Shown here one piece after another: positions 12,480 through 31,504 of a stretch of 64,000 nucleotides of DNA. Both the position numbers and the translations under genes were made by a program. Each line of letters starts with the position of its first letter. Position 1 is the first letter of the stretch. The DNA is from Microthrixaceae bacterium (GTDB taxonomy: Bacteria > Actinomycetota > Acidimicrobiia > Acidimicrobiales > VFJN01), in the NCBI GenBank assembly GCA_052386335.1, contig JBQTKH010000009.1:1842-65841 (forward strand), in the 5' to 3' direction. The notes below the pieces were generated by a model. It did not search any database, had not been told where the DNA came from, and saw nothing but the letters and a program-made list of their open reading frames with translations.

Positions 12480-13652
12480 TCAGGGTGGGTCGGGTCCGGG
12501 GTGGTCGGGGTGGTGGTTACGCCACTTGTTGTGGAAGCCGCACCCGAGGCGACCGTTGTTCTGGGTGGTGGGGCCGCCTCTGTGGGCTTCGTGGATGTGG
12601 TCGATCTCGGGCCGTTCGGGGACGTCGTCGCAGTAGGGGTGGAAGCAGGTGCGGTCGCGAACTTCGATGGCTCGGCGGAGCGCACCCCGGAAGAAGCGGC
12701 GGGTGGCGCCGACGTCGATGACCCGAGAGGGCCCGTCGAACACGATCCGTTCGATGTCGGCTTGGTCGAGCCAGCGCGCCGCGGTGCCCGGGGTGATGGT
12801 GGTGCGGTTGAACAGCTCCAACAAGGGTCCGGCAAAGGTCTCGTAGTCGACGAGCACCGTGAACAACGGCCGCGGGCGCTTCCCATCCGCGGGGGCGGTG
12901 CGGGCCCGGGTGGCCATCTCGACCAGGGCGTCGGCGCGGCGCTGCGCGGGTGTCCGTTGAAGGTCGACGATGAGCGGATCACGGCCGAAACGGGCTTTGG
13001 CCTCGGCCCAGTCAGCCTCGAACAGCTGCCGTTCGATCATCGACAAGGTGCCATGCACGATGTCACCGGAGATCGGGTCCAGGGTCATGCGCCCGAACCA
13101 CATCCCCCCGAAGGACTGGGACAGGTGGACCTCGCGGGCGGCGCGGTCGTCGTCGGCGCCTTGTTCGGCCCCATCAGGGTCGACGAACGCTTCCCAGAGG
13201 TCGCAGTGGCGTTTGAAGTCCACGAACCCCCGCGTGCGGGCCGAGTCCAACAGCGCCTTGTGATCAGTCTCGAACTGCGCCTTGGTGCGCGGTGTGCGCA
13301 CTCCCAACAGGGTGATCAGGTGGGTGCGGTCGATCTCCCCGGAGGCCCATGCTCCCTCGACCGCGGGCAGGGTGCGCAGGGCGCGGGCGTGGCGGATCCG
13401 TTGCCGGGTCGTCTGGATCGGCAACCGCTGCTCACGCGTCAACCACGCGGCACCCGACTTCGCGCCTGAGGCCTGCCAGACCCGGTCCGCGTCCCAGCGC
13501 GCCAACACCCGGGCTTCGGCCGCTTCGAGCTGACCGCGCAGGCGTTGCATCTGCAGGAGCGCGTCGGTCAGCTCCGAAGCGGTCATCCCGTCCGGGTCGA
13601 CCCGGCCGACAGCCGAGGACGCGGTATCGAGCAACGCAACGGCGTCGGCCAT
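12480..13652 (-). CDS. DUF222 + HNH endonuclease (13E12-repeat-like)
   Basis: RTPAQRRADALVEM, RAIEVRDRTCFHPYC, IDHIH..GGPT..NG..CGFHN; GAAGGAGG RBS before ATG 13652. Confidence 0.92.
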   Translation of the reverse strand: MADAVALLDTASSAVGRVDPDGMTASELTDALLQMQRLRGQLEAAEARVLARWDADRVWQASGAKSGAAWLTREQRLPIQTTRQRIRHARALRTLPAVEGAWASGEIDRTHLITLLGVRTPRTKAQFETDHKALLDSARTRGFVDFKRHCDLWEAFVDPDGAEQGADDDRAAREVHLSQSFGGMWFGRMTLDPISGDIVHGTLSMIERQLFEADWAEAKARFGRDPLIVDLQRTPAQRRADALVEMATRARTAPADGKRPRPLFTVLVDYETFAGPLLELFNRTTITPGTAARWLDQADIERIVFDGPSRVIDVGATRRFFRGALRRAIEVRDRTCFHPYCDDVPERPEIDHIHEAHRGGPTTQNNGRLGCGFHNKWRNHHPDHPGPDPP

Positions 13653-13739
13653 GACAGGTCCTCCTTCGGGCGACTCGCGATCTCGCACAAGAACGGGGAC
13701 CAGCAACCAGGTCCCGAAGGGGAACCCCCACAACGTACA

Positions 13740-13753
13740 CGAACTGGAGTTCG
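13740..13753. promoter_or_regulatory. LexA (SOS) box CGAAC-TGGA-GTTCG upstream of the DUF222-HNH gene
   Basis: Perfect actinobacterial CGAAC-N4-GTTCG, adjacent to a minus-strand -10 TACGTT (13732..13737). Confidence 0.8.
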
Positions 13754-13859
13754 TGTGCAACCCGAATCCAACATCTTCGTGCCCGCCAGACCGGCTGTTA
13801 GGCCGCGGAGAGCGCACGCGGGTCGCGTCAGGGACGAGAGGTCGACGACCGCATGCCAC

Positions 13860-14732
13860 TCAGGAGCGAGCGATGACCTCGTCGCCGTACTTGGCGAAGG
13901 CCTCGCGCTGGCCCTCGGGGTCGTAGGCGAGCGGCGGGATGATCACCCGGGTGACGCCGAGGTCGGCGAGCGCCTTGACCTCGTCGAGGGCCTTGCTGCC
14001 GAGCGCGCCGTTTCCGCCTGCGGTGATCTCGATCGCGTCGGGATCGCGGCCGTGCTCCACCGCGGTCGCGCGCATCACGGCGATCAGCTCGGCGAGGTCC
14101 TCGTGGCTGCCTCGGCCGGGGAAGAAGCCGTCGCCCAGGCGCCCGGCGCGCCGCGCCGCCGCCTTGCTGTGGCCGCCGATGACGATCGGCACCGTGGTCT
14201 GGATGGGCCGCGGTCGTGAGATGGCGTTCGTGAACGCGGAGTGCGTGCCCTGGTGCGTGGCCTGGTCTTGTGTCCAGAGCGCGCGCAGCGCGGCGATGTG
14301 GTCGTCGGTGCGGGCGCCGCGGTCGGCGAAGGAGATGCCGATCGCGTCGAACTCCTCCTCCAGCCATCCCACGCCGACGCCGAGCTCCACGCGCCCTCCC
14401 GAGAGGCGATCGAGCGTGGCGACCTCCTTGGCGAGGACGATCGGGTTGCGCTGCGGCAGGATCAGGATGCCGGTGCCGAGACGGATGGTGGAGGTCGCGG
14501 CCGCTACGTAGGTCAACCAGATGAGCGGGTCCGGGATGTCTGAGTCCTCCGGGCCGGGCATCCGGCCTGTGGGGCTGTAGGGGTAGGGCGACTTGTAGCC
14601 GGCCGGCACGATCGTGTGCTCGACGGTCCAGAGGGACTCGATGCCCCCGGCTTCCGCGGCCTGCGCAAGCGCGATCGCCCCCTCGGCATAGGCCATCGGC
14701 CCAACGTTTGCGAACGCAACCCCGAACCTCAT
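13860..14732 (-). CDS. LLM-class F420-dependent oxidoreductase (Rv2161c-like)
   Basis: WTVEH, LAKEVATLDRLSGGRVELGVGVGWLEEEF, IGGHS..AARRAGRLGDGF. Confidence 0.9.
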   Translation of the reverse strand: MRFGVAFANVGPMAYAEGAIALAQAAEAGGIESLWTVEHTIVPAGYKSPYPYSPTGRMPGPEDSDIPDPLIWLTYVAAATSTIRLGTGILILPQRNPIVLAKEVATLDRLSGGRVELGVGVGWLEEEFDAIGISFADRGARTDDHIAALRALWTQDQATHQGTHSAFTNAISRPRPIQTTVPIVIGGHSKAAARRAGRLGDGFFPGRGSHEDLAELIAVMRATAVEHGRDPDAIEITAGGNGALGSKALDEVKALADLGVTRVIIPPLAYDPEGQREAFAKYGDEVIARS

Positions 14733-14830
14733 GACGCTGTCTCCCTGGTCGTTCCGAGCTGAACCTATCGGCCGGCGTCGGGGCGAGCGCACGCCGGGTT
14801 TGTCCGATATGGCAGGATCCTGCACTCGCC

Positions 14831-14878: not shown

Positions 14879-16582
14879 ATGCGGAAGTCGTCGATCCGGC
14901 TCTATGGGCCGTTTCTGGCCGTGGCGCTGCTGCAGGCGCTGTTCATCGCGGTTGCCCCCTCCAAGGCGCCCGACCGGTCCGCGGTGACCGCGGCGCTCGG
15001 CCCGCTCGGCAGCGAGGTGGGTGGCAGCGACGGGGGCGTGATCGACCCGGAGACCGGCCTGCTGATCGACCCGGAGACCGGCGAGCTGATCGACCCGCAG
15101 ACCGGGCGCGCCGTGTCGGGGGGCACCGGTGGCACCGGTGGCACAACCGGCGGAGGGACGACGGGGACGACCGGCACCGCGGGTGGTGTGGCCGGCGACA
15201 CCAGCCACTGCAAGAACGGCTTCCAGTTCGAGGTCCTGCTGCTCAACCCACCGTGCGTCCCGAAGTTCACGGGCAACAACGGTGGCGCGACGTACCGGGG
15301 CGTCACGGACAAGGAGATCAAGATCGTGATCTTTTCCACCGCGTCCAACGCCGCGGTGGACGCAGTGCTGGCGCCTCAGGGCTTGGCGGCATCGCCCGCC
15401 GAGCTCGACGCCATCTACGCCGCGCTCGAGAAGTTCGTCGAGAAGCGCTACGAGCTCTACGGACGCGAACTCAAGATCATCCGCTACACGGGGAACTGCG
15501 AGACCTCGCCCCCCACTGTCGCTGAGTGCAAGGAGTCAGCGCGCGAGGTGATCAAGATGAACCCGTTCCTCGTCGTGTTCGGCACACCGCTCTACGGCGA
15601 GGTGTTCGACGAGTTCGCCCGAGCGGGCATCCCCAGCGTGGGCGGCTGGCACTTCGACGACTCGTACTTCACGCAGCGCCGGCCCTATCGGTACGACGTG
15701 TTCATGGACGGGACCCGCACCGCCCGGATGGTCGGGGAGTACTACTGCAAGAAGATGGCCGGCAAGCCTGCCGACCACGCGGGTGTGGTGATCCACGACA
15801 CCATTCCCGGCGGTCGCCTCGCTCCGCGCAAGGTGGCCATCATCACCCCCGAGATCGACGCCAACGTCCGGGCTCAGCGCTACCTCATGGACATCATCTC
15901 CAAGTGCGATGGTGGCAAGCCCGTCGTGCCGATCACCTACGTGTCGGACATCGAGCGGGCCAACGAGCAGACCGAGGCCACCACGGCCACGCTCATCCGG
16001 GAGAAGGTCACCACGATCATCTGCCTGTGCGACCCGATCGCGCCGGCCTTCGCCACGGCCTACTACACCAAGCAGCACTACTTCCCCGAGCACCTGCTCT
16101 CCGGGAGCGGGCTGCTCGACTACGACCTCCTCGGGCGCCTCTACGAGCCGAACCAGTGGGAGCACGCGTTCGGGCCGAGCCATCTGTCCGAGCCGATCCC
16201 GTTCGGCCAGACCGACGCCTCAAGGGTGTGGCGTGACGTGGGCAACAGCGGTGAGCCGTGCAAGTCCTGCAACCTGCACACCGGCTACTTCGTGTTTGTG
16301 GCCGGTTTGTTGCAGGGCGCCGGACCGAACCTCAACCCGCTCACGATGGAGCAGGCCGTGATGGCATCCAAGCCTCAGGGAGGGTTCCCGGGAACGTCCC
16401 TCATCAAGTTCGGCCCGGGCGACTACACGGCCATCTCCGATGCTCGGGAGGTGTACTGGAGCAGCTCGGCGATCTCCAAGATCGACGGCAAGCCCGGTGC
16501 CTACATCTCGTTGAACAACGCCAAGCGCTACGAGATCGGGCAGTGGAACAACGAGATGGCAATCCCGGTGAAGTCCAAGTGA
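14879..16582 (+). CDS. Membrane-anchored ABC substrate-binding protein (type I/Liv-like fold)
   Basis: N-terminal TM, Gly/Thr linker, NGGATYRGVTDKEIKI motif, several Cys; first gene of a Liv-type operon. Confidence 0.75.
   Translation: MRKSSIRLYGPFLAVALLQALFIAVAPSKAPDRSAVTAALGPLGSEVGGSDGGVIDPETGLLIDPETGELIDPQTGRAVSGGTGGTGGTTGGGTTGTTGTAGGVAGDTSHCKNGFQFEVLLLNPPCVPKFTGNNGGATYRGVTDKEIKIVIFSTASNAAVDAVLAPQGLAASPAELDAIYAALEKFVEKRYELYGRELKIIRYTGNCETSPPTVAECKESAREVIKMNPFLVVFGTPLYGEVFDEFARAGIPSVGGWHFDDSYFTQRRPYRYDVFMDGTRTARMVGEYYCKKMAGKPADHAGVVIHDTIPGGRLAPRKVAIITPEIDANVRAQRYLMDIISKCDGGKPVVPITYVSDIERANEQTEATTATLIREKVTTIICLCDPIAPAFATAYYTKQHYFPEHLLSGSGLLDYDLLGRLYEPNQWEHAFGPSHLSEPIPFGQTDASRVWRDVGNSGEPCKSCNLHTGYFVFVAGLLQGAGPNLNPLTMEQAVMASKPQGGFPGTSLIKFGPGDYTAISDAREVYWSSSAISKIDGKPGAYISLNNAKRYEIGQWNNEMAIPVKSK
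15041..15106 (+). repeat. 3 x 24-bp coding repeat (IDPETG/IDPQTG)
   Basis: ATCGACCCGGAGACCGGC at 15041 and 15065, variant at 15089. Confidence 0.85.
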
Positions 16583-16583
16583 C

Positions 16584-19061
16584 ATGACCGACACACTGAT
16601 CGCTCCTGTACCAGAGGCCGAGACCTTCGGGAGCGGCGGCCGTCGCCGGCGGCCGTCGCCCGAAGTCCTCCTGGAACCGATGCGTCGCGCCTTCGCCCTC
16701 CCCTACATCGGGTCGGTCCTCAAGGTGGTCGTCGGCTACATCGTGCTCGTCGAGGGCGTGATCCAAGTCGTCTTCGGGCGAATCGACGTGCCTTGGGTCG
16801 ACATCTCGCTCATCGAGCGCGGCTTCGGTGACTACGCCGTCCCGCGGGAGATCTTCATCGGCGGGGCGGTGATCGGCAGCCTCTACGCCCTCGGCGGGAT
16901 GGGTCTCATCCTCGTGTATCGGGCCAACCGCATCATCAACTTCGCCCAGGCCCAGCTCGGGGCCGTGCCGGCGGTCGCCGCGTTGCTGCTCATCGCGCTC
17001 AAGGGCTGGAACTACTACCTGGTGCTCCCGGTGCTGATCGGTGGCGCGATCCTGCTGGGCGCGCTCGTCGAGGTCGGGCCCGTTCGACGTCTGAGCAAGG
17101 CGCCTCGCCTCATCCTCACGGTCGCCACGATCGGCATCTCCTTCGTCCTCCTCGTTGCCGAGTTCCTGGTCAAGGTGGTGCTGTCCGACGATCTCCTCGA
17201 GACCGCGCGGACGGAGTTCCCCACGCCGTTCTCGAGCTTCACGTTCACCGTCGGCATCACGCGGTTCAGCGGCAACCACATCGCGACCGTCATCGTCGTG
17301 GCGGTGGTGGTGGGTGCGCTCGGCGCCTTCTTCAAGTACACCGACATGGGCATCGCGGTTCGGGCGTCGGCCGAGAACGGCGACCGGGCGGCACTCGTGG
17401 GCATCCCCGTCAAGCGAGTCTCCACCGTCGTCTGGGTGATCGCCGCGGTGATGTCCGCGATCTGTGTCTTCCTCCGAGCGCCGCTCGTGGGCATCCCGCT
17501 CACCGGGTTCACCGGTCCCGCTGTGCTCCTGCTCGGCCTCGCCACCGCGGTGATCGCTCGGATGGACAGTCTTCCCACCGCGCTCTTCGCGGGCATGTTC
17601 ATCGGCTGTGTCGACCGCGCCGCGGTGTTCGCCACGAGCGCGCCCTCGATCGCCTATGCCTCGATGACCGTGGTGATCCTGATCGCGCTCCTCGTGCAAA
17701 AGGGCGTTGGCGCACGGGCGTTCGACGGTGACACCTCCTCGTGGCAGGCCGTGAAGGAGGTCCGCCCCATCCCGCTCGAGCTGCGCAATCTGCCGGAGGT
17801 CGTCCGAGCCAAGACCGCCGTGTTCGCCGCGGCGGGCGGCCTGATCGTGGGAGCGCCGTTCCTCCTCGGCGACCTGCAGACCGGCTCGGCCACCCGGATG
17901 GTCATCTTCGCGATGGTGGGCGTGTCGCTGGTGATCCTCACCGGGTGGGCCGGCCAGATCTCGCTCGGACAGTGGGCGTTGTCGGGGATCGGCTCGATGA
18001 TCGCGGGCGGCCTGGCCGCGAACCACCACTGGGACTTCTTCGCCACGCTGATCGTGGCGGGCATCGCGGGTGCCGCGGTCGCGGTGCTCGTCGGCCTGCC
18101 CGCATTGCGGATCCAGGGCCTCTTCCTCGCGGTGACGACGCTCGCCTTCGCCTTCACCGTGGAGAACTTCTTCCTCTCCGAGCGGTACTTCGGTGCCCTG
18201 CTCCCGAAGGACAACACCTTCGTGGAACGACCGATCCTCTACGGGGCGGTCGACATCGACACCGACTCGAGGATCGGGTTCTTCACGCTCAAGGCGGATG
18301 CCAAGTACTACTACCTCACCCTGGTCTTCCTGGGGCTCGCGATGGCCCTGGCGCGCTCCCTGCGCAAGAACCGATCGGGCCGCGTGTTCATCGGCGTGCG
18401 CGACAACGGCAAGGTGATGCAGGCATTTGGCGTGAACCTGGCCCGCACGCGCCTCGCGGCCTTCGCCATCTCCGGCTTCATTGCCGCGGTGGCCGGTGCG
18501 CTGTTCTCCTATCAGCAGCGCAGCGTCGATGCCTCCACCTACTCGCCGCAGACGTCGATCCTCATCTTCACGATGACGATCATCGGTGGGATCGGTTCAC
18601 TCGCGGGAGCGATCATCGGTGCGGTCTACGTGGTGGGCATCCCGCTGATGCCCGGGCTGCGCGAGATCGACAACATCGAGCTGCTCTCCAGCGGTCTCGG
18701 CTTGCTCTTCTTGCTGCTCTTCCTGCCTGGTGGTCTGGCCGAGGGCTTCTACCGCGCCCGAGACACGTTCCTGCGCAAGGTGGCGGCGACGCACAACATC
18801 CACGTGCCGAGCCTGGTGGCCGACTCCCTCGTCACCGAAGACCTCGGTCAGCAGATCGCGGTCGGTGCCGACCTCACCGCCACCCCCGAACTCGAGGACC
18901 GCGAGGTGCTCGTGGCGAAGGTGGAGGCGCTCGAGCAGCGCCTGGCCGAGCTCGAGACGAGCGCGACGGCGAGCAACGGCCACGGTCCACACGCCAACGG
19001 CGCGAACGGTGCCGGGGACAGACCACGTCGGGTGCGCCGACCGAAGGGAGGTGCCTCGTGA
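16584..19061 (+). CDS. Fused LivH-LivM-type ABC permease
   Basis: GLILVYRANRIINFAQ, GIAVRASAEN, GWAGQISLGQ, LPALRIQGLFLAVTTLAF. Confidence 0.92.
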   Translation: MTDTLIAPVPEAETFGSGGRRRRPSPEVLLEPMRRAFALPYIGSVLKVVVGYIVLVEGVIQVVFGRIDVPWVDISLIERGFGDYAVPREIFIGGAVIGSLYALGGMGLILVYRANRIINFAQAQLGAVPAVAALLLIALKGWNYYLVLPVLIGGAILLGALVEVGPVRRLSKAPRLILTVATIGISFVLLVAEFLVKVVLSDDLLETARTEFPTPFSSFTFTVGITRFSGNHIATVIVVAVVVGALGAFFKYTDMGIAVRASAENGDRAALVGIPVKRVSTVVWVIAAVMSAICVFLRAPLVGIPLTGFTGPAVLLLGLATAVIARMDSLPTALFAGMFIGCVDRAAVFATSAPSIAYASMTVVILIALLVQKGVGARAFDGDTSSWQAVKEVRPIPLELRNLPEVVRAKTAVFAAAGGLIVGAPFLLGDLQTGSATRMVIFAMVGVSLVILTGWAGQISLGQWALSGIGSMIAGGLAANHHWDFFATLIVAGIAGAAVAVLVGLPALRIQGLFLAVTTLAFAFTVENFFLSERYFGALLPKDNTFVERPILYGAVDIDTDSRIGFFTLKADAKYYYLTLVFLGLAMALARSLRKNRSGRVFIGVRDNGKVMQAFGVNLARTRLAAFAISGFIAAVAGALFSYQQRSVDASTYSPQTSILIFTMTIIGGIGSLAGAIIGAVYVVGIPLMPGLREIDNIELLSSGLGLLFLLLFLPGGLAEGFYRARDTFLRKVAATHNIHVPSLVADSLVTEDLGQQIAVGADLTATPELEDREVLVAKVEALEQRLAELETSATASNGHGPHANGANGAGDRPRRVRRPKGGAS

Positions 19062-22033
19062 GCAACGCCAGCCGTGACCGGCGCTTGATGGCCGCAACGG
19101 GCGGGGCGAGCGCCCTTCCCCTGATCATCCTGTTTGCCTTGAACATGGTCGACGAGCTCGACCAGGTCACCTTCGGCGTGGTGGCCCCGAACATCCGCGA
19201 CACGTTCGGCACGAGCGAGCAGGCGATCACATCGATCGCCGGGATCACCGGCGCGATCGTGATCATGCTGGCGGTACCGATCGGCGTGCTCGCCGACCGG
19301 TACAACCGGGTGCGGATGGCCGGGGTCGCCGCACTCGCGTGGGCGGTCATGGGGGTGTTCACCGGCATCTCGGGGTTCATCGGGGCGATCGGCCTGCTCG
19401 TGATCGCGCGCTTCGGCGCGGGCATCGGACGGCTGATGAACGAGCCGGTCCACGTCGGGCTGCTCGCCGACTACTACCCGCCGCAGCAGCACGGGAGGAT
19501 CTTCAGCATCCATCGCATGGCCAACCCCATCGGTGGGCTCTTCGTGCTCGCGGGTGGTGTGCTCGCCGACCTGGTCGGGTGGCGCTTCGGCTTCATGCTC
19601 ATGGCGATCCCCACCGTGGTGGCCGTCATGTTCCTCTCGCGGCTCAGCGAGCCGGTGCGGGGGGCGTCGTTGGACATGGGTCTGGCGCAGTCTGCCGACG
19701 AGCAGGCCGCGAACATCCCGATCAGCGAGGGCTACCGACGCCTCAAGGCCATCCCCACCCTCAAGCGAGCGTGGTGGGCTGGTGCGCTCATCGGGGCGAG
19801 CATCGTGCCGATCGCGGTCTTCTTCAACTTCTTCTTCGAGAACGTCTACAACGTCACGAGCATCACCGCTCGAGCCGCGATCACGATGCTCTACTCGGTC
19901 GGTCAGATCTTCGCCTTCGTCTGGGGCTACCGGAAGTCCACCGAGCTGCTGATGGCGGGGGAGACGCCGCTGCTGGGCGAGTACGCCGGGCGTCTGCTGA
20001 TCCTGTCGGGCCTCGCACTCGTCGTCATGGCGTCGGCCCCGTGGATCGGCGTGTCGATCGCGTTCGTGTTCATCGTCGGCCTCTTCGGCGCGTTCAACAG
20101 CTTCGCGCTGCCGCTCCTCGTGGCGGTGGCGCCACCTCGGCTGCGGTCGCAGGCGTTGGGCTACTTCGTGTTCTTCATCGGCCTCGGCGGCATCACCGGC
20201 GCGGTGGTGGTGGGCGGTATCGGTGAGAACCAGGGCTACCGGTACGCCATCAACATCCTGTCGATCCTGCTGGTCATCGCTGGGCTGATCTACCGGAGCA
20301 CGAAGACCTTCATCCGGCGAGATGCCGACCAAGCGTTCAAGACCCTCATGGTCGAGGCAGGGTTGCGCGGCGAGCAGCAGGGGGGCGTGGCTGGCGCGCT
20401 CCTCACCTGCAAGGACGTCGAGGTGGCCTACGACCAGGTGCAGGTCCTCTTCGGGGTGGACCTCGACATCCGGCCCGGCGAGTGCGTCGCCCTCCTCGGC
20501 ACCAACGGTGCAGGCAAGTCCACCCTCCTCAAGGCCATCAGCGGGCTCGTCGACCCGATCGGCGGTGCCATCTTCTTCGACGGCACCGACATCACCCACA
20601 CCGACGGTGTCGGCACGGCCAAGGCGGGCATCGTCCAGGTGCCGGGCGGCAAGGCCGTGTTCCCCACCCTCACGGTGGCCGAGCACCTTCGCGTGGCCGG
20701 GTGGCTCTACCGTGACGACCCCGACTACCTCAAGCAGGCCAACGAGGAGGTGCTCGAGCTCTTCCCGCGCCTCCGTGAGCGGATCGACCAGATGGCGGGC
20801 AACCTGTCGGGCGGCGAGCAGCAGATGCTGGCCCTCGGGATGGCGTTCATCGCCAAGCCCAAGCTGCTGATGATCGACGAGCTCTCCCTTGGCCTCGCGC
20901 CCACGATCGTGGAGCAGCTCCTCGAGATCGTGCGCAAGATCCAAGCCACGGGCACGGCGATCATCCTCGTGGAGCAGTCGATCAACGTCGCCCTCACCGT
21001 GGCCGATCGCGCCTACTTCATGGAGAAGGGCGAGGTGCGCTTCCAGGGCTCCACCGTCGAGCTGCTCGAGCGCGACGACATCGTGCGATCGGTGTTCCTC
21101 CAAGGGGCGTCGATGGCAACGGGTGCGGGCGGCACCAAGGTGGCGGCCGCAGCCACGCGGAAGGCTCCGGTCGAGCTGGTTCCCCTCCTCGAGCTCACGG
21201 GGGTGACGAAGCGCTTCGGCGGCATCCGAGCAGTGGACGACACGAGCTTCACCCTGCACCAAGGGGAGATCCTCGGTCTGATCGGTCCCAACGGCGCGGG
21301 CAAGACGACGATCTTCGACCTCGTGTCCGGCTTCCTGATCCCCGACGGGGGCCGCATCGTGCTGAGCGGCGAGGACATCACCGAGATGGCGCCCGACGCG
21401 CGTGCCTGGATGGGCCTCGGTCGGTCGTTCCAGGACGCCCGCCTCGTGCCGTCGCTCACCGTCGCCGAGAACGTGGCCATCGGCCTCGAGCGGCACCTCG
21501 ACGTGCGTGACCACGTGGCATCCGCACTGGCCCTGCCGGGCGTGGTGCGGCTCGAAGAGGACGTCGCCTGGACCGTCGACGACCTCATCGAGATGATGAA
21601 CCTGGGCGCCTTCCGCGACAAGTTCGTGCGCGAGCTCTCGACCGGTTCGCGCCGGATCGTCGATCTCGCGATGTGCATCGCGCACGACCCGCTCGTGCTG
21701 CTCCTCGATGAGCCGAGCTCAGGGATCGCGCAAGCCGAGACCGAGGCCTTGGGGCCCCTCCTCGAGCAGATCCAGACCGAGACGGGGTGCGCCCTGCTGG
21801 TCATCGAGCACGACATGCCGCTGATCACCTCGGTGTCCGATCGCATGATCGCCCTCGAGCTCGGGCATCCGATCGTGGAGGGCACTCCCGAGGAGGTCAC
21901 CACGAACGCTCGGGTGGTGTCGTCGTACCTGGGCGGTGACCTGGCCGTGATCAACCGCTCCGGTCGAGTGGCCCCTGCCGCGAAGCCCGCTGCCAAGCGG
22001 CGCGCCCCGCTGAAGGCCGAGGAGCTGGTGTGA
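19058..22033 (+). CDS. MFS transporter fused to two ABC ATPase domains (LivF then LivG type)
   Basis: GTG 19058 overlaps the previous stop; MFS motif GVLADRYNR; GTNGAGKS/LSGGEQQ/IDE, then GPNGAGKT/LSTG/LDE/EH, all in one frame. Confidence 0.9.
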   Translation: MSNASRDRRLMAATGGASALPLIILFALNMVDELDQVTFGVVAPNIRDTFGTSEQAITSIAGITGAIVIMLAVPIGVLADRYNRVRMAGVAALAWAVMGVFTGISGFIGAIGLLVIARFGAGIGRLMNEPVHVGLLADYYPPQQHGRIFSIHRMANPIGGLFVLAGGVLADLVGWRFGFMLMAIPTVVAVMFLSRLSEPVRGASLDMGLAQSADEQAANIPISEGYRRLKAIPTLKRAWWAGALIGASIVPIAVFFNFFFENVYNVTSITARAAITMLYSVGQIFAFVWGYRKSTELLMAGETPLLGEYAGRLLILSGLALVVMASAPWIGVSIAFVFIVGLFGAFNSFALPLLVAVAPPRLRSQALGYFVFFIGLGGITGAVVVGGIGENQGYRYAINILSILLVIAGLIYRSTKTFIRRDADQAFKTLMVEAGLRGEQQGGVAGALLTCKDVEVAYDQVQVLFGVDLDIRPGECVALLGTNGAGKSTLLKAISGLVDPIGGAIFFDGTDITHTDGVGTAKAGIVQVPGGKAVFPTLTVAEHLRVAGWLYRDDPDYLKQANEEVLELFPRLRERIDQMAGNLSGGEQQMLALGMAFIAKPKLLMIDELSLGLAPTIVEQLLEIVRKIQATGTAIILVEQSINVALTVADRAYFMEKGEVRFQGSTVELLERDDIVRSVFLQGASMATGAGGTKVAAAATRKAPVELVPLLELTGVTKRFGGIRAVDDTSFTLHQGEILGLIGPNGAGKTTIFDLVSGFLIPDGGRIVLSGEDITEMAPDARAWMGLGRSFQDARLVPSLTVAENVAIGLERHLDVRDHVASALALPGVVRLEEDVAWTVDDLIEMMNLGAFRDKFVRELSTGSRRIVDLAMCIAHDPLVLLLDEPSSGIAQAETEALGPLLEQIQTETGCALLVIEHDMPLITSVSDRMIALELGHPIVEGTPEEVTTNARVVSSYLGGDLAVINRSGRVAPAAKPAAKRRAPLKAEELV

Positions 22034-23085
22034 TGCGCCGACTGGGCACACTGGTCTGCGGCTCGGCCGCGGTTCTCGGCGGCCTCGTGGCCGCCGGTGT
22101 CCCGGCGCTGGCCGGATCGGCACAGACCCTCGACGACGCCGGCTGGTGGTGGCGCGTGAAGCAGGGTCCGGTCGCCCCCGTCGCGCCGGCCCCGCCAACC
22201 ACCTCCGAGGATCAGCTGATGGTCCAGGGCGCACCAGACGGCGAGGAGGGCGCCACGGCCATTGCTGCGGTGCGCTTCACCCTGAACGAGGGCGACGGCA
22301 GCCCCATCCTCACGCTGAAGGTGGCCCCCAACGGCGATTCCGGAGGTGCCGACGCGATCCTCATCGCCTGCCAGGCCGGGGCGGCCTGGAGCGGTGGCAC
22401 CGGGCCTCAGCAGTGGGAGGGCGCGCCCCTCGTCGACTGCAGCCAGTCGGTGCAGGGGCAGCGCTCGTCCGACGGCGCCACGTGGGTCTTCCCCGTTGCC
22501 TCGTTGCAGTTCAACGATCAGATCAACGTCGTCCTCGTTCCCGGCAAGAACCCCACGCTTCCCGAGGGCGCGAACGCGTCGGTGTTCCAGCTCGTCTTCG
22601 AGCGACCCACTGCGGCGTCGATCACCACCACCGATGGCACCGCGTCCGAGGACTTCGGGGGCGGTGGCGACTTCGGAGGCGGCTTCGGCACCACGGGGTA
22701 CGACTCGACGTTTCCTGATTCGTCCTTCACGGATCCGGCGGTCGGCCCCTCGACGTTCAGCACCCCACCGGTGCAGCCCGCGCTCCCACCGGAGAACGTG
22801 GGCACCTCCGCCATCGCCCCTCGGGTGCAGGCGCGCACCCCGGTGCCGACGCAGGCCATCAGCAACGATCGACCTGGCGGAGCCCGTGCGCTGGGCTTCC
22901 TCGTGCTGCTGCTCAGCGGAGCGGGGAGCTGGTGGTTCTCGCAGCAGGCGGCTCCGGCGCCGCGCAAGCTCGGTCGGTTCGCCGGGGTCCCCATCGCTGG
23001 TGGCCCCCCGCCGCCCGAGCCACAGGTGGGTGGCTTGGGCCGGTTCGCCCGTACCCGTTCGTCAGCGCCCCGCCGACTGAGCTGA
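22030..23085 (+). CDS. Secreted, C-terminally anchored hypothetical protein
   Basis: Signal peptide, beta-rich domain with two Cys, G/P/T-rich stalk, TM, basic tail; GTGA coupling to the previous gene. Confidence 0.75.
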   Translation: MMRRLGTLVCGSAAVLGGLVAAGVPALAGSAQTLDDAGWWWRVKQGPVAPVAPAPPTTSEDQLMVQGAPDGEEGATAIAAVRFTLNEGDGSPILTLKVAPNGDSGGADAILIACQAGAAWSGGTGPQQWEGAPLVDCSQSVQGQRSSDGATWVFPVASLQFNDQINVVLVPGKNPTLPEGANASVFQLVFERPTAASITTTDGTASEDFGGGGDFGGGFGTTGYDSTFPDSSFTDPAVGPSTFSTPPVQPALPPENVGTSAIAPRVQARTPVPTQAISNDRPGGARALGFLVLLLSGAGSWWFSQQAAPAPRKLGRFAGVPIAGGPPPPEPQVGGLGRFARTRSSAPRRLS

Positions 23086-23104: not shown

Positions 23105-23998
23105 TCAGGTCTGCAGTGGTAGGACGACGTCCGCGACCTCGCGGAGGTGAACGTCCCAGTCGGGCGGTTCCATGACGGGCACCACCACGAACTTCGACCC
23201 GCCCGCGTCGATGTGCTTCTCGATCATCGCTCGCAGCCCATCGAGGCCTGAGGCCACGACTGCACCCGGGTCGATCCCGGGCCGTCGCCGGGCGATGCCC
23301 GCCGCCACGATGTCGGGGATCGGGCCGTCGACGTACGGGATGAGCGCCCCGAAGTGCTCAGGGTCGATCTTGCGGTCGGCCTCTGCGGCGTGCTGCTGGA
23401 TCACGCCGATCCCCGAGCGCACGTCGTCTGCGGTGCAGAACGACGGCAGCCATCCATCCGCCAGGCGACCACAGCGCCGGAGCTCGGAGGGCGCGATGCC
23501 GCCGAGCCAGATCTCGAGCGGGTCCTGGTGGGGGAGCGGCCGCACCTCGGCAGCCTCGTAGTGGTGGAAGCGGCCGTCGTGGTCCACCTGCTCGCCCGCC
23601 CAGAAGCGACGGAGCAGTGGGAGGGTCTCGTCGAAGCGGGCGGCCCGCTCGGTTCGCTCCACGCCGAAGGCCTGCTGCTCGGCCGGGTCGACGGCACCGA
23701 GGCCGAACGCGGGCAAGAGGCGACCGTGTGAGAGGCGGTCGAGGGTGGCCAGCTCCTTGGCCAGCAGCATCGGGTTGCGGCCCGGGACCACGAGCACGGA
23801 GAAGCCGAACTTGATGCGCGTGGTGAGCCCGGCGGCCACGCCGAGCGCCACGATCGGATCGGGACAGTCTCCGGTGACGCGCTCGGAGAGCCACAGCGAG
23901 TCGAACCCGAGGCGTTCGAGACCGGTCACGAGCGCTGCGAAGCGGTCGGGGTCAGTCGAGGCGCGGGTGCCGAGCCCGTAGCCGATGCGCACCTTCAT
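23105..23998 (-). CDS. LLM-class (F420-type) oxidoreductase
   Basis: MKVRIGYGLG, FDSLWLSER, LAKELATLDRLS, GRLADGWLPSF. Confidence 0.9.
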   Translation of the reverse strand: MKVRIGYGLGTRASTDPDRFAALVTGLERLGFDSLWLSERVTGDCPDPIVALGVAAGLTTRIKFGFSVLVVPGRNPMLLAKELATLDRLSHGRLLPAFGLGAVDPAEQQAFGVERTERAARFDETLPLLRRFWAGEQVDHDGRFHHYEAAEVRPLPHQDPLEIWLGGIAPSELRRCGRLADGWLPSFCTADDVRSGIGVIQQHAAEADRKIDPEHFGALIPYVDGPIPDIVAAGIARRRPGIDPGAVVASGLDGLRAMIEKHIDAGGSKFVVVPVMEPPDWDVHLREVADVVLPLQT

Positions 23999-24042
23999 GC
24001 GGGCAGCCTGCCACGCCGGTAGCGGGGGCATAGGTTCTCGCC

Positions 24043-24816
24043 ATGAGCACGATCGATCTGACAGCCCCGTTCCGTCTCGATGGCCGCGTGGTGGTGGTGA
24101 CGGGAGCGTCGAGTGGTCTCGGCGACCGGTTCGCGCGGGTGCTCCACGCCGCAGGCGCCACCGTGGTTGCAGCGGCGCGTCGCACCGAACGACTCGAGGC
24201 ACTCGCAGTCGACCTCGATGATCGCCTCATCCCTGTGACCTGTGACGTGTCGGTCGACGCGGACTGCGAGCGGTTGATCACCGAGGCCATCGCGATCGAC
24301 GGCCACCTCGACGTGCTGGTCAACAACGCGGGCATCGGGACGCAGGTGCCCGCCGAACACGAACCGATCGGCGACTTCCGAGGTGTCGTCGACGTCAACC
24401 TCAACGCGCTCTTCCTGCTCAGCCAGCTCGCTGGGCGCCACATGATCGAGCGACGGTCCGGGTCGATCGTGAACCTGGCGTCGGTGCTGGGCCTCGTGGC
24501 GTCCACGCCGATCAAGCAGGCGTCGTACTGCGCCACCAAGGGCGCCGTCGTCAACCTCACTCGGGAGCTCGGCGCCCAGTGGGCCCGCAAGGGCATCCGG
24601 GTGAACGCGCTGGCGCCTGGCTGGTTCCGCTCCGAGATGACCGAGCTCATGTTCTCCGATCCCGGTGCCAACGACTTCATGACCCGAAACTGCCCGATGG
24701 GGCGGGCGGGCGAGCCACATGAGCTCGATGGAGCGCTCCTGTTCCTGGCCAGCGATGCCAGCAGCTACATGACGGGCCAGACTCTCACGATCGACGGCGG
24801 GTGGGTGGCGCGCTAG
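24043..24816 (+). CDS. SDR family oxidoreductase
   Basis: TGASSGLG, NNAG, YCATK, VNALAPG. Confidence 0.95.
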   Translation: MSTIDLTAPFRLDGRVVVVTGASSGLGDRFARVLHAAGATVVAAARRTERLEALAVDLDDRLIPVTCDVSVDADCERLITEAIAIDGHLDVLVNNAGIGTQVPAEHEPIGDFRGVVDVNLNALFLLSQLAGRHMIERRSGSIVNLASVLGLVASTPIKQASYCATKGAVVNLTRELGAQWARKGIRVNALAPGWFRSEMTELMFSDPGANDFMTRNCPMGRAGEPHELDGALLFLASDASSYMTGQTLTIDGGWVAR

Positions 24817-24842: not shown

Positions 24843-25754
24843 CTAGTGCCCTGCCGGGCGGACGAGGATTTGTGGTCGCGTGACGGCCAAGACCGCAAGC
24901 CCACCCAGCACGAGCAGGATGCCGACGAGGGCCGCTGCGGTGAGCTGCTCGTTCAGGAGCACGACCGCCAGCAGCGCGGCCGTGAGGGGCTCGGCAAGGG
25001 AGAGGGTTGTCGCAGTGGCCACGGTGACGCCGGGGATCCCGCGCCCGAACAGGAGGTAGGCCAGCGCGAGGCTGACCACGCCGAGCCACAGCGCTGCGGC
25101 TGCTCCTTGCAGGTTGAGCAGCGGCTGTACGCCCGCGATGAGACCGAGCGGCAGGAGCAGGGTGGCGCTGAGCGCGAACACCCACGTCATCACGAGGTCA
25201 GGGTCGTGCCGCTCGATGAGCGACTTGGAGGACACCGCGAACGTGGCATAGCCAAGGCCAGCCCCGAGCGCGAGCACGAGGCCGCGTGGATCGACCGGAT
25301 CGCCTCCGCTGTCGGTCGTGGCCAGCAGCGCGACGCCGGTCAGCGCCAGGCCAGTCGCAACCGCCCAGCGGCGACCGGGTCGCTCGCCGCGCACGAGCCA
25401 ACCCAGCGCGCCACCCCAGATGGGGCCGGACCCGATCCCCACGACCGTGCCGATCGCGACGCCAGCGAGGCGGACGCCGCCGAAGAAGCTGAGCTGGAAG
25501 GCCGCCGCCGTCAGGGCGGCGAGGATGAGCGGTCGTCGCTCGATGTCCCGTGCCCCGGTGAGCAGCCGACCCCGTCCGATCGCGACGGCGAGCAGCACGA
25601 GGGCGCCCAGAACGTTGCGAGTGGCCCCGAACGCGATCGCGCTCGCGTCGTCCGGGCCGAGGGCCTGTGCCGTGCCGGTGGTTCCCCAGCAGACCGAGGC
25701 GCCGATGACGAGGAGCCGGGCGCGCCCCCCGCTCGCCGGTGCGTGAGTGGGCAC
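24843..25754 (-). CDS. EamA/DMT family transporter
   Basis: WGTTGTAQ, GVAIGTVVGIGSGP, TLSLAEPLTA; about 10 TM. Confidence 0.9.
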   Translation of the reverse strand: MPTHAPASGGRARLLVIGASVCWGTTGTAQALGPDDASAIAFGATRNVLGALVLLAVAIGRGRLLTGARDIERRPLILAALTAAAFQLSFFGGVRLAGVAIGTVVGIGSGPIWGGALGWLVRGERPGRRWAVATGLALTGVALLATTDSGGDPVDPRGLVLALGAGLGYATFAVSSKSLIERHDPDLVMTWVFALSATLLLPLGLIAGVQPLLNLQGAAAALWLGVVSLALAYLLFGRGIPGVTVATATTLSLAEPLTAALLAVVLLNEQLTAAALVGILLVLGGLAVLAVTRPQILVRPAGH

Positions 25755-25761
25755 GGAGCAG

Positions 25762-26667
25762 CTAGAGCAGGCCGCGCAGGAACTCGCGGGTGCGGTGCCG
25801 GTCGTCGGCCTCGGCCGCGAAGTCCACGGCGAGGAAGTCCTCCACGCCCGCGACTCGGAAGCGCTCGATCCCGGACTGGACCTCGTCCTCTGTGCCGATG
25901 ATGGCGAGGTCGCCCGGGCCCTGGAGACCCTCGCGGTCGAGCATCGCCCGATACGACGGGAGGTAGCCGTACATCTGGAACACGATGGCGGCCCTCGCCC
26001 TCGCCCCGGCGACGTCGCTCGTGACGCACACCGGTACGCCTGCCACGATCCGAGGCTCGGCCCGACCGTGCTTGTCCGCGGAGGCATGCAGCGTGGGGAC
26101 GATGTGGCCGCTGATCGTCTGCGGACCGGTCATCCAGGTGATCGTGCCGTCGGCCATCTCCCCGGTGAGCTCGAGCATCTTCGGCCCGAGCGCCGCGACG
26201 AGGATCGGGCAAGGCTGCGCGCCGGGCACGTCGATCGTGACGGAGGTGCGGTAGGTCTCGCCCGTGAAGGCGACATTGCCGTCGTGGATGAGCGGGCCGA
26301 GGATCGAGAGGTACTCCCGCATGTGGCGCAGGGGCTTGTCGAAGCTCATCCCCATGATCTGCTCGATCACCATCTGGTGCGACAGGCCGATGCCCAGCGT
26401 GAAGTGGCCGCCCGTGAGCGCGTTCGCGGTGAGCGCCTGCTGCGCCAGCATCATCGGATGGCGTGGGTAGGTCGGCACGACCGCTGTGCCCACCTCGAGG
26501 GCGGGAACCTCGCGTCCGATCACGCCCGCGACGGTGATGGCGTCGGCCCCGAAGATCTGGGGGAGCCAGAACGACGGGAACCCCTCGGCCGCCGCGAGAT
26601 GAGCGGCGGCGACGAGCCCGTCGATCCCGTCGGTGGCCGTGTCCCCTGCGAAGATCCCGATGCGCAT
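25762..26667 (-). CDS. LLM-class F420-dependent oxidoreductase
   Basis: GTAVVPTYPRHP, FTLGIGLSH, AALGPKML..ADGTITW, YGYLPSYRAML. Confidence 0.9.
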   Translation of the reverse strand: MRIGIFAGDTATDGIDGLVAAAHLAAAEGFPSFWLPQIFGADAITVAGVIGREVPALEVGTAVVPTYPRHPMMLAQQALTANALTGGHFTLGIGLSHQMVIEQIMGMSFDKPLRHMREYLSILGPLIHDGNVAFTGETYRTSVTIDVPGAQPCPILVAALGPKMLELTGEMADGTITWMTGPQTISGHIVPTLHASADKHGRAEPRIVAGVPVCVTSDVAGARARAAIVFQMYGYLPSYRAMLDREGLQGPGDLAIIGTEDEVQSGIERFRVAGVEDFLAVDFAAEADDRHRTREFLRGLL

Positions 26668-26737
26668 GAGGCTGACCCTACTGACGTCCTGAGGATCAAG
26701 TTCGCTCGTCGCGACCTCCGCCTGTGACCATGGACGG

Positions 26738-28345
26738 GTGCTACAGGTCCGCGAGCTCGCAGTGGAGGTGGGTGGCTCCGTCATCATGGACGGCGTCAGC
26801 TTCTCCATCCGCGCCCGCGACAAGGTGGGGCTGGTGGGGCGCAACGGTGCCGGCAAGACCAGCCTGCTGAAGGTGCTCGGGGGTGGCACCGACCCGTTCG
26901 CGGGCGTCGTGCACCGCACCGGAGGCCTCGGCTACCTCCCACAGGATCCCAAGATCGAGGGCGTCGACGACAGCACCACCGCCATCCGGCACATCCTGTC
27001 CGGGCGCGGCTTCGACGAAGCGATGACCCGACTAGAGAAGCTGCGCCTCCAGATGGAGGAGGACCCCTCCGAGCGGGCGGTGGATCGCTTCACCCGCGCC
27101 GAGGAGACGTTCAACAACGAGGGTGGCTACGCCGCCGAGGCTGAGGTGCACCGCATCTCGGCGGGGCTGGGCCTCGATGCCGATCGCCTCGACCTACCGA
27201 TCAGCGCGCTTTCGGGTGGGCAGCGTCGACGCGTCGAGATCGCCCGCATCCTGTTCGCGGGTAGCGACGTGCTGCTCCTCGACGAGCCCACGAACCACCT
27301 CGACAGCGACGCCAAGGAGTGGCTGCTCAGCTTCATGCGGGCCTACCGCGGCGCTCTGCTCGTGATCAGCCACGACCTCGACCTGCTCGACGAGGCCATC
27401 ACCCGCGTGCTGCACCTCGACCGGTACGACGACGCCAGCCTCGGCACGATGGAGGAGTACAAGGGCACCTACAGCCAGTACCTCGTGGCCCGCGAGAAGG
27501 ACGAGATCCGCCTGGCCAAGGTCGCGCAGCGGCAGGCCAAGGAGATCGACCGCCTGCAGACCCTCGTCGACCGCTTCGGGGCGAAGGCGTCGAAGGCGTC
27601 GATGGCCCACAGCATCGAGAAGCGCATCGTGCGGCTCGAGTCCACGGCGGTCGAGGCATCGAAGGGCAACCGCTCGGTGCACGTGCGGTTCCCTCCGCCG
27701 CCGCAGTCAGGCCGCGTCGCCCTCGAAGGAGCTGACCTCGCGGTGCACTACGGCGACCTCGAGGTGTTCCGCGACGTCGACTTCGCGGTGGAGCGTGGCG
27801 AGCGGCTCCTCATCATGGGGCTCAACGGTGCGGGCAAGACCAGCCTCCTGCGCGTCCTCGCCGGCGAGCTTCAAGCCACCGCGGGCTCGTTCCACCTGGG
27901 TCACAACGTGGTGGCCGGCTACTACGCACAGGAGCACGAGGGCATCCACGCCGGTCGCACGATCCTCGAGCACCTCCGCGAGCAGGTGCCCCAAGCACCC
28001 GATCCGATGCTGCGCTCGATCGTGGGGGCCATGGGCCTCACCGGCGACAAGGTGCACCAGGACGCCGGCACGCTCTCGGGCGGCGAGAAGACCAAGCTCG
28101 CGCTCGGGATCCTCGTAGCCGGCCGCCACAACCTGCTCCTGCTCGACGAGCCCACGAACAACCTCGACCCTGGCTCCCGCGTGGCGGTGGCCGAGGGGTT
28201 GCGTGGCTGGCCCGGCTCGATCGTGCTCGTCAGCCACGACGCCCAGTTCGTGCGCGACCTCGAGCCGAACAAGGTGCTCCTGATGCCCGACGGCACCCTC
28301 GACCACTGGGCCGACAGCTACCTCGACCTCGTCGAGCTCGCCTAG
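26738..28345 (+). CDS. ABC-F family ATPase
   Basis: Two NBDs (GRNGAGKT/LSGGQ/LDEPTNHLD; GLNGAGKT/LSGGE/LDEPTNNLD), no TM. Confidence 0.95.
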   Translation: MLQVRELAVEVGGSVIMDGVSFSIRARDKVGLVGRNGAGKTSLLKVLGGGTDPFAGVVHRTGGLGYLPQDPKIEGVDDSTTAIRHILSGRGFDEAMTRLEKLRLQMEEDPSERAVDRFTRAEETFNNEGGYAAEAEVHRISAGLGLDADRLDLPISALSGGQRRRVEIARILFAGSDVLLLDEPTNHLDSDAKEWLLSFMRAYRGALLVISHDLDLLDEAITRVLHLDRYDDASLGTMEEYKGTYSQYLVAREKDEIRLAKVAQRQAKEIDRLQTLVDRFGAKASKASMAHSIEKRIVRLESTAVEASKGNRSVHVRFPPPPQSGRVALEGADLAVHYGDLEVFRDVDFAVERGERLLIMGLNGAGKTSLLRVLAGELQATAGSFHLGHNVVAGYYAQEHEGIHAGRTILEHLREQVPQAPDPMLRSIVGAMGLTGDKVHQDAGTLSGGEKTKLALGILVAGRHNLLLLDEPTNNLDPGSRVAVAEGLRGWPGSIVLVSHDAQFVRDLEPNKVLLMPDGTLDHWADSYLDLVELA

Positions 28346-28457: not shown

Positions 28458-30089
<1,632 letters not shown>

Positions 30090-30124: not shown

Positions 30125-31504
30125 ATGTCCGCTGACGAGTTCCGCTTGGAGCACGACACGATGGGCGAGGTGCAGGTTCCCGCCTGGGCCCGCTGGGGTG
30201 CGCAGACGCAGCGGGCGGTCGACAACTTCCCGGTGTCGGGCCTGCGGGTCGAGCGATCGCTGATCAGCGCGCTCGCCGCGCTCAAGGGCCGCGCCGCCCT
30301 CGTCAACCATGAGCTGGGCGTGATCGCCGACGACGTTGCACAGGCGATCCACGATGCCGCCGTGGAGGTGGTGCAGGGGAGATGGGACGAGCACTTTCCC
30401 GTCGACGTGTTCCAGACCGGCTCCGGCACCTCGACCAACATGAACATGAACGAGGTGCTCGCCAACCTCGCGTCTGAGCGGCTCGGTCGACCGGTGCACC
30501 CGAACGACGAGGTGAACGCCTCGCAGTCGTCCAACGACGTGTTCCCGTCCGCCATCCACCTCGCCGCGGTGCGCGACACCTCGGAGGGCCTGCTCCCTGC
30601 CCTTGACCACCTCCGGGCGACGTTGCAGGACCAGGCTGACCGCAACGCCGCGGTGGTGAAGGCGGGCCGGACCCACCTCATGGACGCCACGCCGGTGACC
30701 CTCGGCCAGGAGCTGGGTGGCTACGCGGCCCAGGTGCGCGACGCTGCTGATCGCCTGCGCGCGGCGCTGCCCCGGGTGGGACAGTTGCCCCTCGGCGGCA
30801 CGGCCGTGGGTACCGGACTCAACGCGCCGGTGGGCTTCGGTGCCGCGGTGGCCGGCCACCTGGCTGCGGGATTCGGCCTCCCGCTGTCGGAGGCGCCCGA
30901 CCACTTCGCTGCCCAGGGCGCGCGCGACGAGCTGGTGGGCCTCTCGGGCGACCTTCGCGTGCTGGCCGTCGCGCTGCTGAAGATCGCCAACGACCTGCGC
31001 TGGATGGCGTCGGGCCCGAAGACCGGCCTGGCCGAGATCCGTCTGCCCGACCTGCAGCCCGGCTCGTCGATCATGCCCGGCAAGGTGAACCCGGTGATCC
31101 CCGAGGCGGTGAGCCAGGTGGTGGCCCAGGTGTACGGCAACGACGCAGCGGTGGCCTTCGCCGGAAGCCAGGGCAACTTCGAGCTCAACGTGTACCTGCC
31201 GGTGATCGCCCGCAACCTGCTCGAATCGATCCGCCTGCTGACCAACGTGAGCCGCTTGTTCGCCGACCGGTGCATCGCCGGCATCGAGCCCGACGTCGAG
31301 CGCATGCGGCGCTATGCCGAAGCCACCCCCCAGGCTGCGACCGCCCTCAACCCGCTCCTCGGCTACGAGCGCGTCGCCGAGCTCGTCAAGGAATCAGCCA
31401 AGACCGGCAAGAGCATCCGCACGCTCGCGGTAGAGCACGGCCTGGTCCCCGAATCAGAGATCGACGAGGTCCTCAACCTCCTCCGCCTCACCCGTGGCGG
31501 TTGA
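30125..31504 (+). CDS. fumC: Class II fumarate hydratase
   Basis: [30 protein letters not shown]. Confidence 0.95.

Follow-up and report, generated by a model that had tools for sequence, protein, structure and literature searches.

A Spinster-like MFS domain on one protein with both Liv-type ATPases: an accessory module of an ABC importer operon type

A four-gene operon of a Microthrixaceae bacterium encodes a single protein in which a carrier domain of the major facilitator superfamily (MFS) is joined to both ATPases of a Liv-type importer of the ATP-binding cassette (ABC) superfamily. No other transporter superfamily is as large as either of these, and the two are regarded as distinct in mechanism. 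In this protein an entire MFS domain is attached covalently to the ATPases of an entire importer. The operon lies in a stretch of 64,000 nucleotides, referred to as the window (assembly GCA_052386335.1, contig JBQTKH010000009.1, positions 1,842 to 65,841), and coordinates are those of the window unless another locus is named. The presence of the MFS and both Liv-type ATPases on one protein is confirmed as real and is not an artefact. The MFS is an accessory add-on to a pre-existing type of ABC importer operon, and not a core part of it, because orthologous and paralogous operons exist without the MFS domain.

The operon consists of four open reading frames (ORFs), all on the + strand, at 14879-16582, 16584-19061, 19058-22033 and 22030-23085, as read from the ORF list and the translations. 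A first-pass annotation of the window, made from the letters alone, had described four coupled genes, and both their coordinates and their layout are exactly as it claimed. The first two genes are one nucleotide apart and the following ones overlap by 4 nt and again by 4 nt, a spacing from which we take the four to be translationally coupled. The GC content is 66-72% across the whole length of the operon, and a composition scan found no compositional break.

The third gene encodes a protein of 991 residues, with an MFS_1 domain from residue 26, followed by a LivF-type nucleotide-binding domain (NBD) and then a LivG-type NBD. The single ORF of about 990 residues with these three parts, proposed in the first-pass annotation, is thus borne out by domain searches against Pfam and NCBIfam. 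The Spinster-like MFS domain (19058-20317, + strand, residues 1 to about 420) reaches 121.6 bits with Pfam MFS_1 (PF07690) against a cut-off of 33.4, matches the structures 6e8j and 9boi in the PDB, and carries the conserved residues D32/E33/D35, D80-R81-x-x-R84, R118, R125 and D138. The fusion junction is a linker of about 26 residues between transmembrane (TM) helix 12 and the first NBD (20318-20395, + strand). NBD1 (20396-21106, + strand, residues 447-683) is of LivF/UrtE type, with the NCBIfam LivF model covering 447-683 and UrtE 449-674. NBD2 (21182-22033, + strand, residues 709-962) is of LivG/UrtD type (NCBIfam LivG/UrtD at 709-960) and has a BCA_ABC_TP_C tail (PF12399, residues 939-961, 26.5 bits with a cut-off of 25.5) as well as a basic C-terminus. 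The translation of each NBD shows Walker A, signature and Walker B motifs, and the LivF-type and LivG-type pair with this tail is that of an importer of the HAAT/LivHMGF type. Over 118 of the 120 available homologues, two partial proteins being left out for length, the mean column conservation is 0.60 for the MFS, 0.47 for the linker, 0.88 for NBD1 and 0.84 for NBD2.

Both contigs of public runs and independent genomes speak for the fusion. The junction (nt 20300-20400), singled out for checking in the first-pass annotation, is bridged by contigs from public runs of three studies: X1 over 492 nt and X3 over 142 nt, each with 0 differences, and X4 over 151 nt with 2 differences; one of the three runs possibly stems from the sample that gave the window. 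The search of sequencing runs listed no RNA run with this sequence. The best 120 homologues listed from a collection of 5.8 billion proteins all carry both PF07690 and PF00005 (120/120); they are 52-100% identical, mostly at 95-100% coverage, and 950-1100 residues long. They come from NCBI, JGI and ENA assemblies, with contigs of 1-3 Mb among them. A frameshift or an assembly chimera would have to recur in independent assemblies, including contigs of 2-3 Mb, and in the bridging contigs of three studies; nothing in its favour was found, and this explanation, whose probability we regard as negligible, was rejected on the bridging contigs and the homologue surveys. In NCBI these homologues are labelled simply as "MFS transporter", and in JGI as [quoted passage not shown]. 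The architecture has therefore already been noticed by database annotators, as the JGI product names tell.

The host genome assembly (4.24 Mb, 88% complete) is itself rich in such proteins. It contains four full MFS-LivF-LivG paralogues, of 100, 55, 50 and 44% identity to the window protein, two LivF-LivG proteins without an MFS, and many ordinary split livF/livG pairs. The third full-length paralogue (L083, G000:C245:15116-18061) has a single in-frame TGA, which may represent a pseudogene, a sequencing error or a recoding event. A second architecture is present on host contig C132 (L093), with a LivHM gene, a separate LivG, a Peripla_BP_6 binding protein, about 1.7 kb, and then a 756-residue MFS-LivF protein bearing a single NBD.

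The optional nature of the MFS is apparent from a survey of 85 tandem-NBD places, comprising the best 80 of 490 confirmed relatives in species-representative genomes and five paralogues of the host's own genome, the window's own copy (L081) being left out. The MFS is present in 31 of these places, and in L083 as well, absent from 48, and cut by contig ends in 5. In the operons without it, the NBD gene begins at the stop codon of the LivHM gene or within a few hundred bases of it, as verified by ORF listing for L006 and L014, and no MFS-like sequence was found in the retrieved flanks of these operons. In every fused form, of both architectures, the MFS sits directly N-terminal to the LivF-type NBD, and a LivH-LivM permease and a binding protein are always encoded beside the fusion.

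A quick maximum-likelihood tree of the NBD pair (83 rows, of which 34 are labelled with MFS, 45 without and 4 unknown) requires 8 changes of MFS presence, and well-supported branches force at least 4 of these. The supported clade of 15 rows that holds the window has 11 members with the MFS, 2 without (L006 and L014) and 2 unknown. The 35 fused MFS domains form one clade, with a support of 99 in the Shimodaira-Hasegawa-like approximate likelihood ratio test, against five free Spinster-type proteins in a tree of the same quick kind. The branching within this clade is at odds with the NBD tree: the MFS of L009 groups with those of L016/L018/L019, and that of L010 with that of L069. The two trees conflict at L005, L009, L010 and L015, which suggests module exchange or gene conversion among paralogues. 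The pattern fits a single origin of the MFS fusion, followed by losses and by exchange among paralogues, and is offered as a lead only, since both trees are quick searches without approximately unbiased tests.

The fusion is widespread in its group. Among 121 sampled genomes of the class, with six candidates scored per genome, 15/121 had a full-length match to the fusion and 15/121 a match to MFS-LivF. In the phylum sample, 40/401 genomes had a match spanning the MFS-LivF junction, or 38/399 without the unpublished positives G369 and G197, and these positives are clustered in few families (10/10, 11/21 and 3/19 genomes). The records of the nearest loci name Acidimicrobiales, Acidimicrobiaceae, Microthrixaceae and one Nitriliruptorales. 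Tandem-NBD forms without the MFS also occur in records titled Frankiales, Mycobacteriales, Chloroflexota, Dormibacterota and Acidobacteriota. The first-pass annotation had mentioned similar architectures in Acidimicrobiia annotations, and the class, phylum and homologue surveys agree with it. It had also named absence of the fusion in relatives as a ground for doubt; some close relatives do lack it, whereas many others have it.

The MFS domain represents a branch of its own beside the Spinster (Spns) carriers. Its N-terminal half matches HnSpns (6e8j) in the PDB with an E value of 5e-15, human SPNS1 with 1e-13 and SPNS2 with 1e-4, and 6e8j, 9boi and SPNS2 are the closest solved relatives of the domain. 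The NCBIfam models that respond to it are weak and below cut-off, and are those of anion:cation and aromatic-acid symporters. The nearest free-standing proteins outside the fused family are 26-32% identical, and several of them are named "spinster family MFS transporter". With the PDB matches, these names and the position of the fused clade as sister to the five free Spns-type proteins, the closest relatives of the domain are Spns proteins.

The functional residues of HnSpns were mapped onto the window by a HMMER alignment and a 40-sequence alignment. The HnSpns paper (PMC9440201) gives them as D87-R91 of motif A, the TM4 arginine R122, the charge-relay aspartate D142, the TM1 aspartate D41, and the TM4 glutamate E129, a protonation switch paired with the TM1 arginine R42. 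D87-R91 corresponds to D80-R84 in the window, R122 to R118, D142 (in "DYYPP") to D138, and D41 to D35 or D32, depending on the register. D80, R81 and R84 of motif A, R118, D138 and D35 are kept in essentially all of the 35 fused domains, down to 26% identity; the D80-R81-x-x-R84 of motif A is invariant in 35/35. Many charged residues are invariant over the 118 close homologues. The equivalent of the switch E129 is Arg125; of the 35 fused domains, 31 have Arg at this position, 3 have Gln and 1 has Glu. After the TM1 aspartate, Spns has Arg, as do many of the fused domains, while the window's group has Gln, and TM1 of the window has an additional Asp-Glu one turn earlier than in Spns. The Spinster-like character proposed in the first-pass annotation thus holds for ancestry, on 6e8j, SPNS1 and the free spinster-named relatives, and fails at the defining switch residue. 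Because of this missing feature, the domain is best filed as Spns-derived by ancestry and not as a member of Spns. Compared with HnSpns, SPNS1 and SPNS2, it shares an alignable N-domain, the TM1 aspartate, motif A, the TM4 arginine and the "DYYPP" aspartate; it differs in the arginine in place of the TM4 glutamate, in the earlier Asp-Glu and the glutamine of TM1, in its fusion to ABC ATPases and in a C-domain whose similarity to that of Spns is not significant.

In 3/3 loci fetched, more distant free-standing members of this MFS family (32-34% identity) have no liv gene nearby, which shows that the module can occur by itself as a protein of carrier type. With the MFS domain alone as the query, 152 clusters were found at E<=1e-30 among 1.84 billion 50%-identity representatives. 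Among the best 150 of these 152, two Walker A motifs were seen in 16 and one in 23; 67 were 395-560 residues long and had none, 36 were shorter than 395, and 8 were longer and lacked the motif. Some MFS-only proteins of about 435 residues (50-63% identity) might be split forms beside an NBD gene; this was not confirmed in a metagenome scan, which gave only two fused loci. Locus L109 (6724-9543), whose genome belongs to a different family within the phylum, holds one free-standing protein of the fused MFS family, with a second MFS gene immediately after it, beside tatC.

The remaining genes encode a permease, a predicted binding protein and an accessory membrane protein. The second gene (16584-19061, + strand, 825 residues) encodes a fused LivH-LivM permease, as anticipated in the first-pass annotation, and matches Pfam BPD_transp_2 (PF02653) in two stretches with 170.5 bits against a cut-off of 26.8. 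The LivH-like half spans residues 92-377 (nt 16857-17714, + strand) and the LivM-like half residues 416-722 (nt 17829-18749, + strand), giving the two BPD_transp_2 domains of a HAAT/LivHMGF-type importer. The protein also has an N-terminal extension with one additional hydrophobic segment by hydropathy, and a C-terminal tail of about 100 residues. The NCBIfam models LivM, UrtC, LivH and UrtB all remain far below their cut-offs on it, and a sequence search of the PDB returned no solved relative.

The first gene (14879-16582, + strand) encodes a predicted substrate-binding protein of 567 residues, with a helix at 1-31, a linker at 32-104 and a two-lobe domain of LivJ type at 105-567. It has no match in Pfam, even at E 10, in NCBIfam, or by sequence in the PDB, and a profile of 64 homologues searched against the PDB gave none either. 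For residues 105-567, AlphaFold2 (AF2) predicts a structure with a per-residue confidence (pLDDT) of 96 and a predicted template modelling score (pTM) of 0.93, which Foldseek places among the type I periplasmic binding proteins at E values of about 1e-13 and 11-16% identity. Its nearest folds are binders of 4-hydroxybenzoate/vanillate, of fatty acid, or of Leu/Ile/Val. By this prediction, the product is a very divergent LivJ-fold binding protein, and its structural neighbours, all at such low identity, do not point to any one ligand. The aromatic-acid, fatty-acid and amino-acid binders 4evs, 4eyg, 4n03 and 4n0q share the predicted two-lobe type I fold (target-normalised TM-score about 0.66-0.73), while the window domain is only 11-16% identical to them, has no sequence or profile match and is about 100 residues larger. 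The N-terminal helix is conserved ("MRKS..LY.PF.A.A..QA..."), lacks a lipobox and, in 13/13 homologues inspected, leads into a long linker rich in Gly, Thr and Asp; it is probably retained as an uncleaved membrane anchor. The large, Cys-rich anchored binding protein of the first-pass annotation stands as regards the predicted fold, and less so as regards cysteine, since with 10 Cys the protein is only moderately Cys-rich.

The fourth gene (22030-23085, + strand) encodes an accessory single-pass membrane protein of 351 residues, here named P4, which was studied by an alignment of 29 homologues, AF2 and Foldseek. It comprises a signal peptide followed by a GWW motif, a beta-sandwich ectodomain at residues 33-202 (nt 22126-22635), a variable low-complexity stalk and a TM helix at 284-304. 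Across the 29 homologues, the ectodomain keeps two conserved Cys and the cytoplasmic side a GG(L/I)GRFAR motif. The gene had been read as that of a secreted stalked protein; the signal peptide and the stalk are there, while the TM helix and the conserved cytoplasmic tail mean that it is not simply secreted. The C-terminal motif could dock on a cytoplasmic partner. AF2 models the ectodomain mostly with pLDDT above 90, and Foldseek relates it to CBM96-type carbohydrate-binding modules (CBMs) for chondroitin sulfate and alginate, 8wab (8e-5) and 7vbo (5e-4). A weak Atlas lead, with a score of only 0.81, agrees with CBM96, and there was no match to PF24517 or any other Pfam family at E 10. The beta-sandwich resembles 8wab and 7vbo with a target-normalised TM-score of 0.49-0.55; in this comparison of folds, it differs in being only 12-13% identical and in standing within a membrane-anchored transporter subunit. 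A P4 homologue follows the NBD gene in 13/31 operons with the MFS and in 8/48 without it, and at 29 loci under a looser threshold. P4 is thus not tied to the MFS, since its homologues follow NBD genes of both kinds, and it defines an unannotated protein family.

How such a protein works can be approached only through its parts. We lean, by a modest degree, towards a complete ABC importer whose LivF ATPase carries a tethered, conformationally active, Spns-derived carrier beside the importer, perhaps gated by the NBDs. The operon would be a binding-protein-dependent importer of the hydrophobic-amino-acid (LivHMGF/HAAT) type, in a subfamily that appears to occur mainly in Actinomycetota. The plan of this subfamily is permeases in one protein, ATPases in one protein (LivF then LivG), a divergent, probably anchored binding protein and often a CBM-like single-pass protein; a large minority, including the window paralogue, carries a 12-TM Spinster-derived MFS on the N-terminus of the LivF-type ATPase. 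As the ATPases must dock under LivH-LivM, the MFS would be held next to the importer in the membrane. There it would most likely perform as a working alternating-access carrier for the same or a related compound, perhaps serving as a second gradient-driven route or removing a product or counter-substrate, with a possible gating by the state of the ATPase dimer. For its substrate, the first-pass annotation had suggested a putative lipid or amphiphile. The analysis establishes the anatomy, how it is conserved, its modularity and the survival of the switching motifs in the MFS. Every functional step here is one that we infer: the membrane proximity, the carrier activity, any coupling, the direction of MFS transport and the substrate. 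A functional MFS is likely in view of its invariant motif residues over deep divergence and its free-standing family members. Several observations weigh against this reading. The MFS is missing from 48/85 related tandem-NBD operons, including the orthologous L006 and L014 of the window's supported clade; the switch glutamate is replaced by arginine, with the consequence that proton coupling of the Spns type is not assured; the C-terminal half of the MFS is poorly conserved; and the binding protein matches no family model that would name the substrate of the importer. A stronger form, which we hold to be doubtful, is a natural covalent primary/secondary hybrid, in which the ABC dimer and the Spns-like carrier control each other in an obligatorily coupled import-plus-export or dual-energy cycle. 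The binding or hydrolysis of ATP would then gate or drive the MFS, or the state of the MFS would license hydrolysis. If true, this would couple energy in a way not so far described in either of the two superfamilies. The first-pass annotation had pictured one machine coupling a secondary carrier to an ATP-driven importer; that step is an inference, and operons both orthologous and paralogous do without the MFS.

The other explanations take the MFS out of transport, give it the ATP, or give it no role. It may no longer transport, and instead be a membrane sensor or regulatory domain, transceptor-like, which reports to the ATPases and tunes the importer. The optional presence of the MFS among orthologues, its weakly conserved C-domain, the loss of the switch glutamate to arginine and the short linker of about 26 residues to NBD1 would all suit a sensor, whereas motif A, the charge-relay aspartate and the TM4 Arg118 are invariant over deep divergence, as expected of a cycling domain, and free-standing members of the family exist; we see this as a minority possibility. 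The ATPases could also energise the MFS directly, as an ATP-driven MFS pump resembling in concept ArsB with ArsA or BioY with BioMN, given the covalent tie to LivF in two architectures and the lost proton-switch residue. This we judge quite improbable, as LivH-LivM and the binding protein, the canonical partners for both NBDs, are always alongside, and operons without the MFS are otherwise identical in parts; moreover, we know of no coupling helix for an ABC NBD in MFS folds. Similarly small is the chance that the operon is an ordinary branched-chain amino acid importer with the MFS as evolutionary baggage of no consequence. The Liv-type permease and ATPase matches and the repeated loss of the MFS among lineages (8 changes in the tree of the NBD pair, of which at least 4 are forced) fit such baggage; set against them are a binding protein 11-16% identical to solved LivJ types, whose nearest folds bind aromatic acids, fatty acids and amino acids alike, the LivH/LivM/UrtB/UrtC equivalog models far below cut-off, and the strong purifying selection on the functional motifs of the MFS.

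Among known systems, E. coli LivJ/K-LivHMGF of the HAAT family, which we take to be TC 3.A.1.4, is the natural reference. Its BPD_transp_2 pair and its LivF and LivG pair, including the BCA_ABC_TP_C tail, recur here, and the LivJ fold of its binding protein is predicted here as well; in the window, by contrast, the permeases are fused, the ATPases are fused in the order F then G, an MFS and a single-pass subunit are added, the binding protein is probably TM-anchored and is unrecognised by Pfam, and the permease equivalogs lie far below cut-off. In the comparison with UrtABCDE, it is the UrtD and UrtE models that score highest on the NBDs, at 306 and 304 bits (each a sum over two NBDs of one protein), whereas UrtB reaches 55 bits against a cut-off of 250 and UrtC 74 against 296, and the binding protein is not UrtA-like by any model. 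In ArsB with ArsA and in BioY with BioMN, a carrier able to work alone is joined to an ATPase module, as separate subunits. To our knowledge, neither of these has a second complete ABC permease, whereas in the window the carrier sits on the ATPases of an importer that is complete without it. A full-text literature search, which did not extend to the TCDB and InterPro architecture tables, where an entry may exist, found neither a description of an MFS-Liv ATPase fusion nor, in line with the first-pass annotation, a functional study. The available portions of PMC3924187 and PMC11130926 do not mention the fusion.

The operon is flanked by F420-type oxidoreductases, as the first-pass annotation had noticed, and both are of the luciferase-like monooxygenase (LLM) class by Pfam Bac_luciferase and TIGR03619. 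The divergent one (13860-14825, - strand), F420-dependent, scores 278 bits with TIGR03619 against a cut-off of 167, and the convergent one (23105-24202, - strand) 170.9 against 166.9. Orthologues of the former flank the operon in L002, L005, L011 and L012, and of the latter in L002, L005, L008, L011, L012 and L014. The relatives with this synteny share 77-88% NBD identity, so the synteny may be inherited. A functional link between the transporter and the F420 enzymes, as the first-pass annotation supposed, is at most weakly suggested by synteny among fairly close relatives. The transporter block is co-directional with the LLM flanks in L002, L011, L012 and L014, and inverted relative to them in the window, L005 and L008; no inverted repeats of note were seen at the ends of the inverted block. 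Three F420-dependent LLM-class paralogues of different TIGR subfamilies lie within 13 kb (13860-14825, 23105-24202 and 25762-26919, all on the - strand), and an EamA carrier (24843-26087) stands between two of them, downstream of the operon. Upstream, a tyrosine integrase with an Arm DNA-binding domain (4930-6051, + strand) is followed by small ORFs up to about 11 kb, a region that may be an integrated element. A DUF222 protein (12480-13859, - strand), presumably of the kind common in actinobacterial HNH-type repeat proteins, is two genes upstream of the operon, beyond the flanking LLM gene. Further downstream, a class I fumarase of the Fe-S type (28458-30089, - strand) and a class II fumarase (30125-31504, + strand) lie back to back and divergent.

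The fusion is retained in several paralogues per genome, and roughly one in ten of the genomes sampled from this major soil and water phylum has it. Even without coupling, the operon offers three unannotated pieces, namely a predicted new family of LivJ-fold binding proteins, a fused LivFG ATPase and a CBM-like single-pass subunit, which current annotation reduces to "MFS transporter" or "hypothetical protein". If the two parts communicate, they would represent a new coupling principle together with a ready-made system for its study, in which the sister operons without the MFS would be natural controls.

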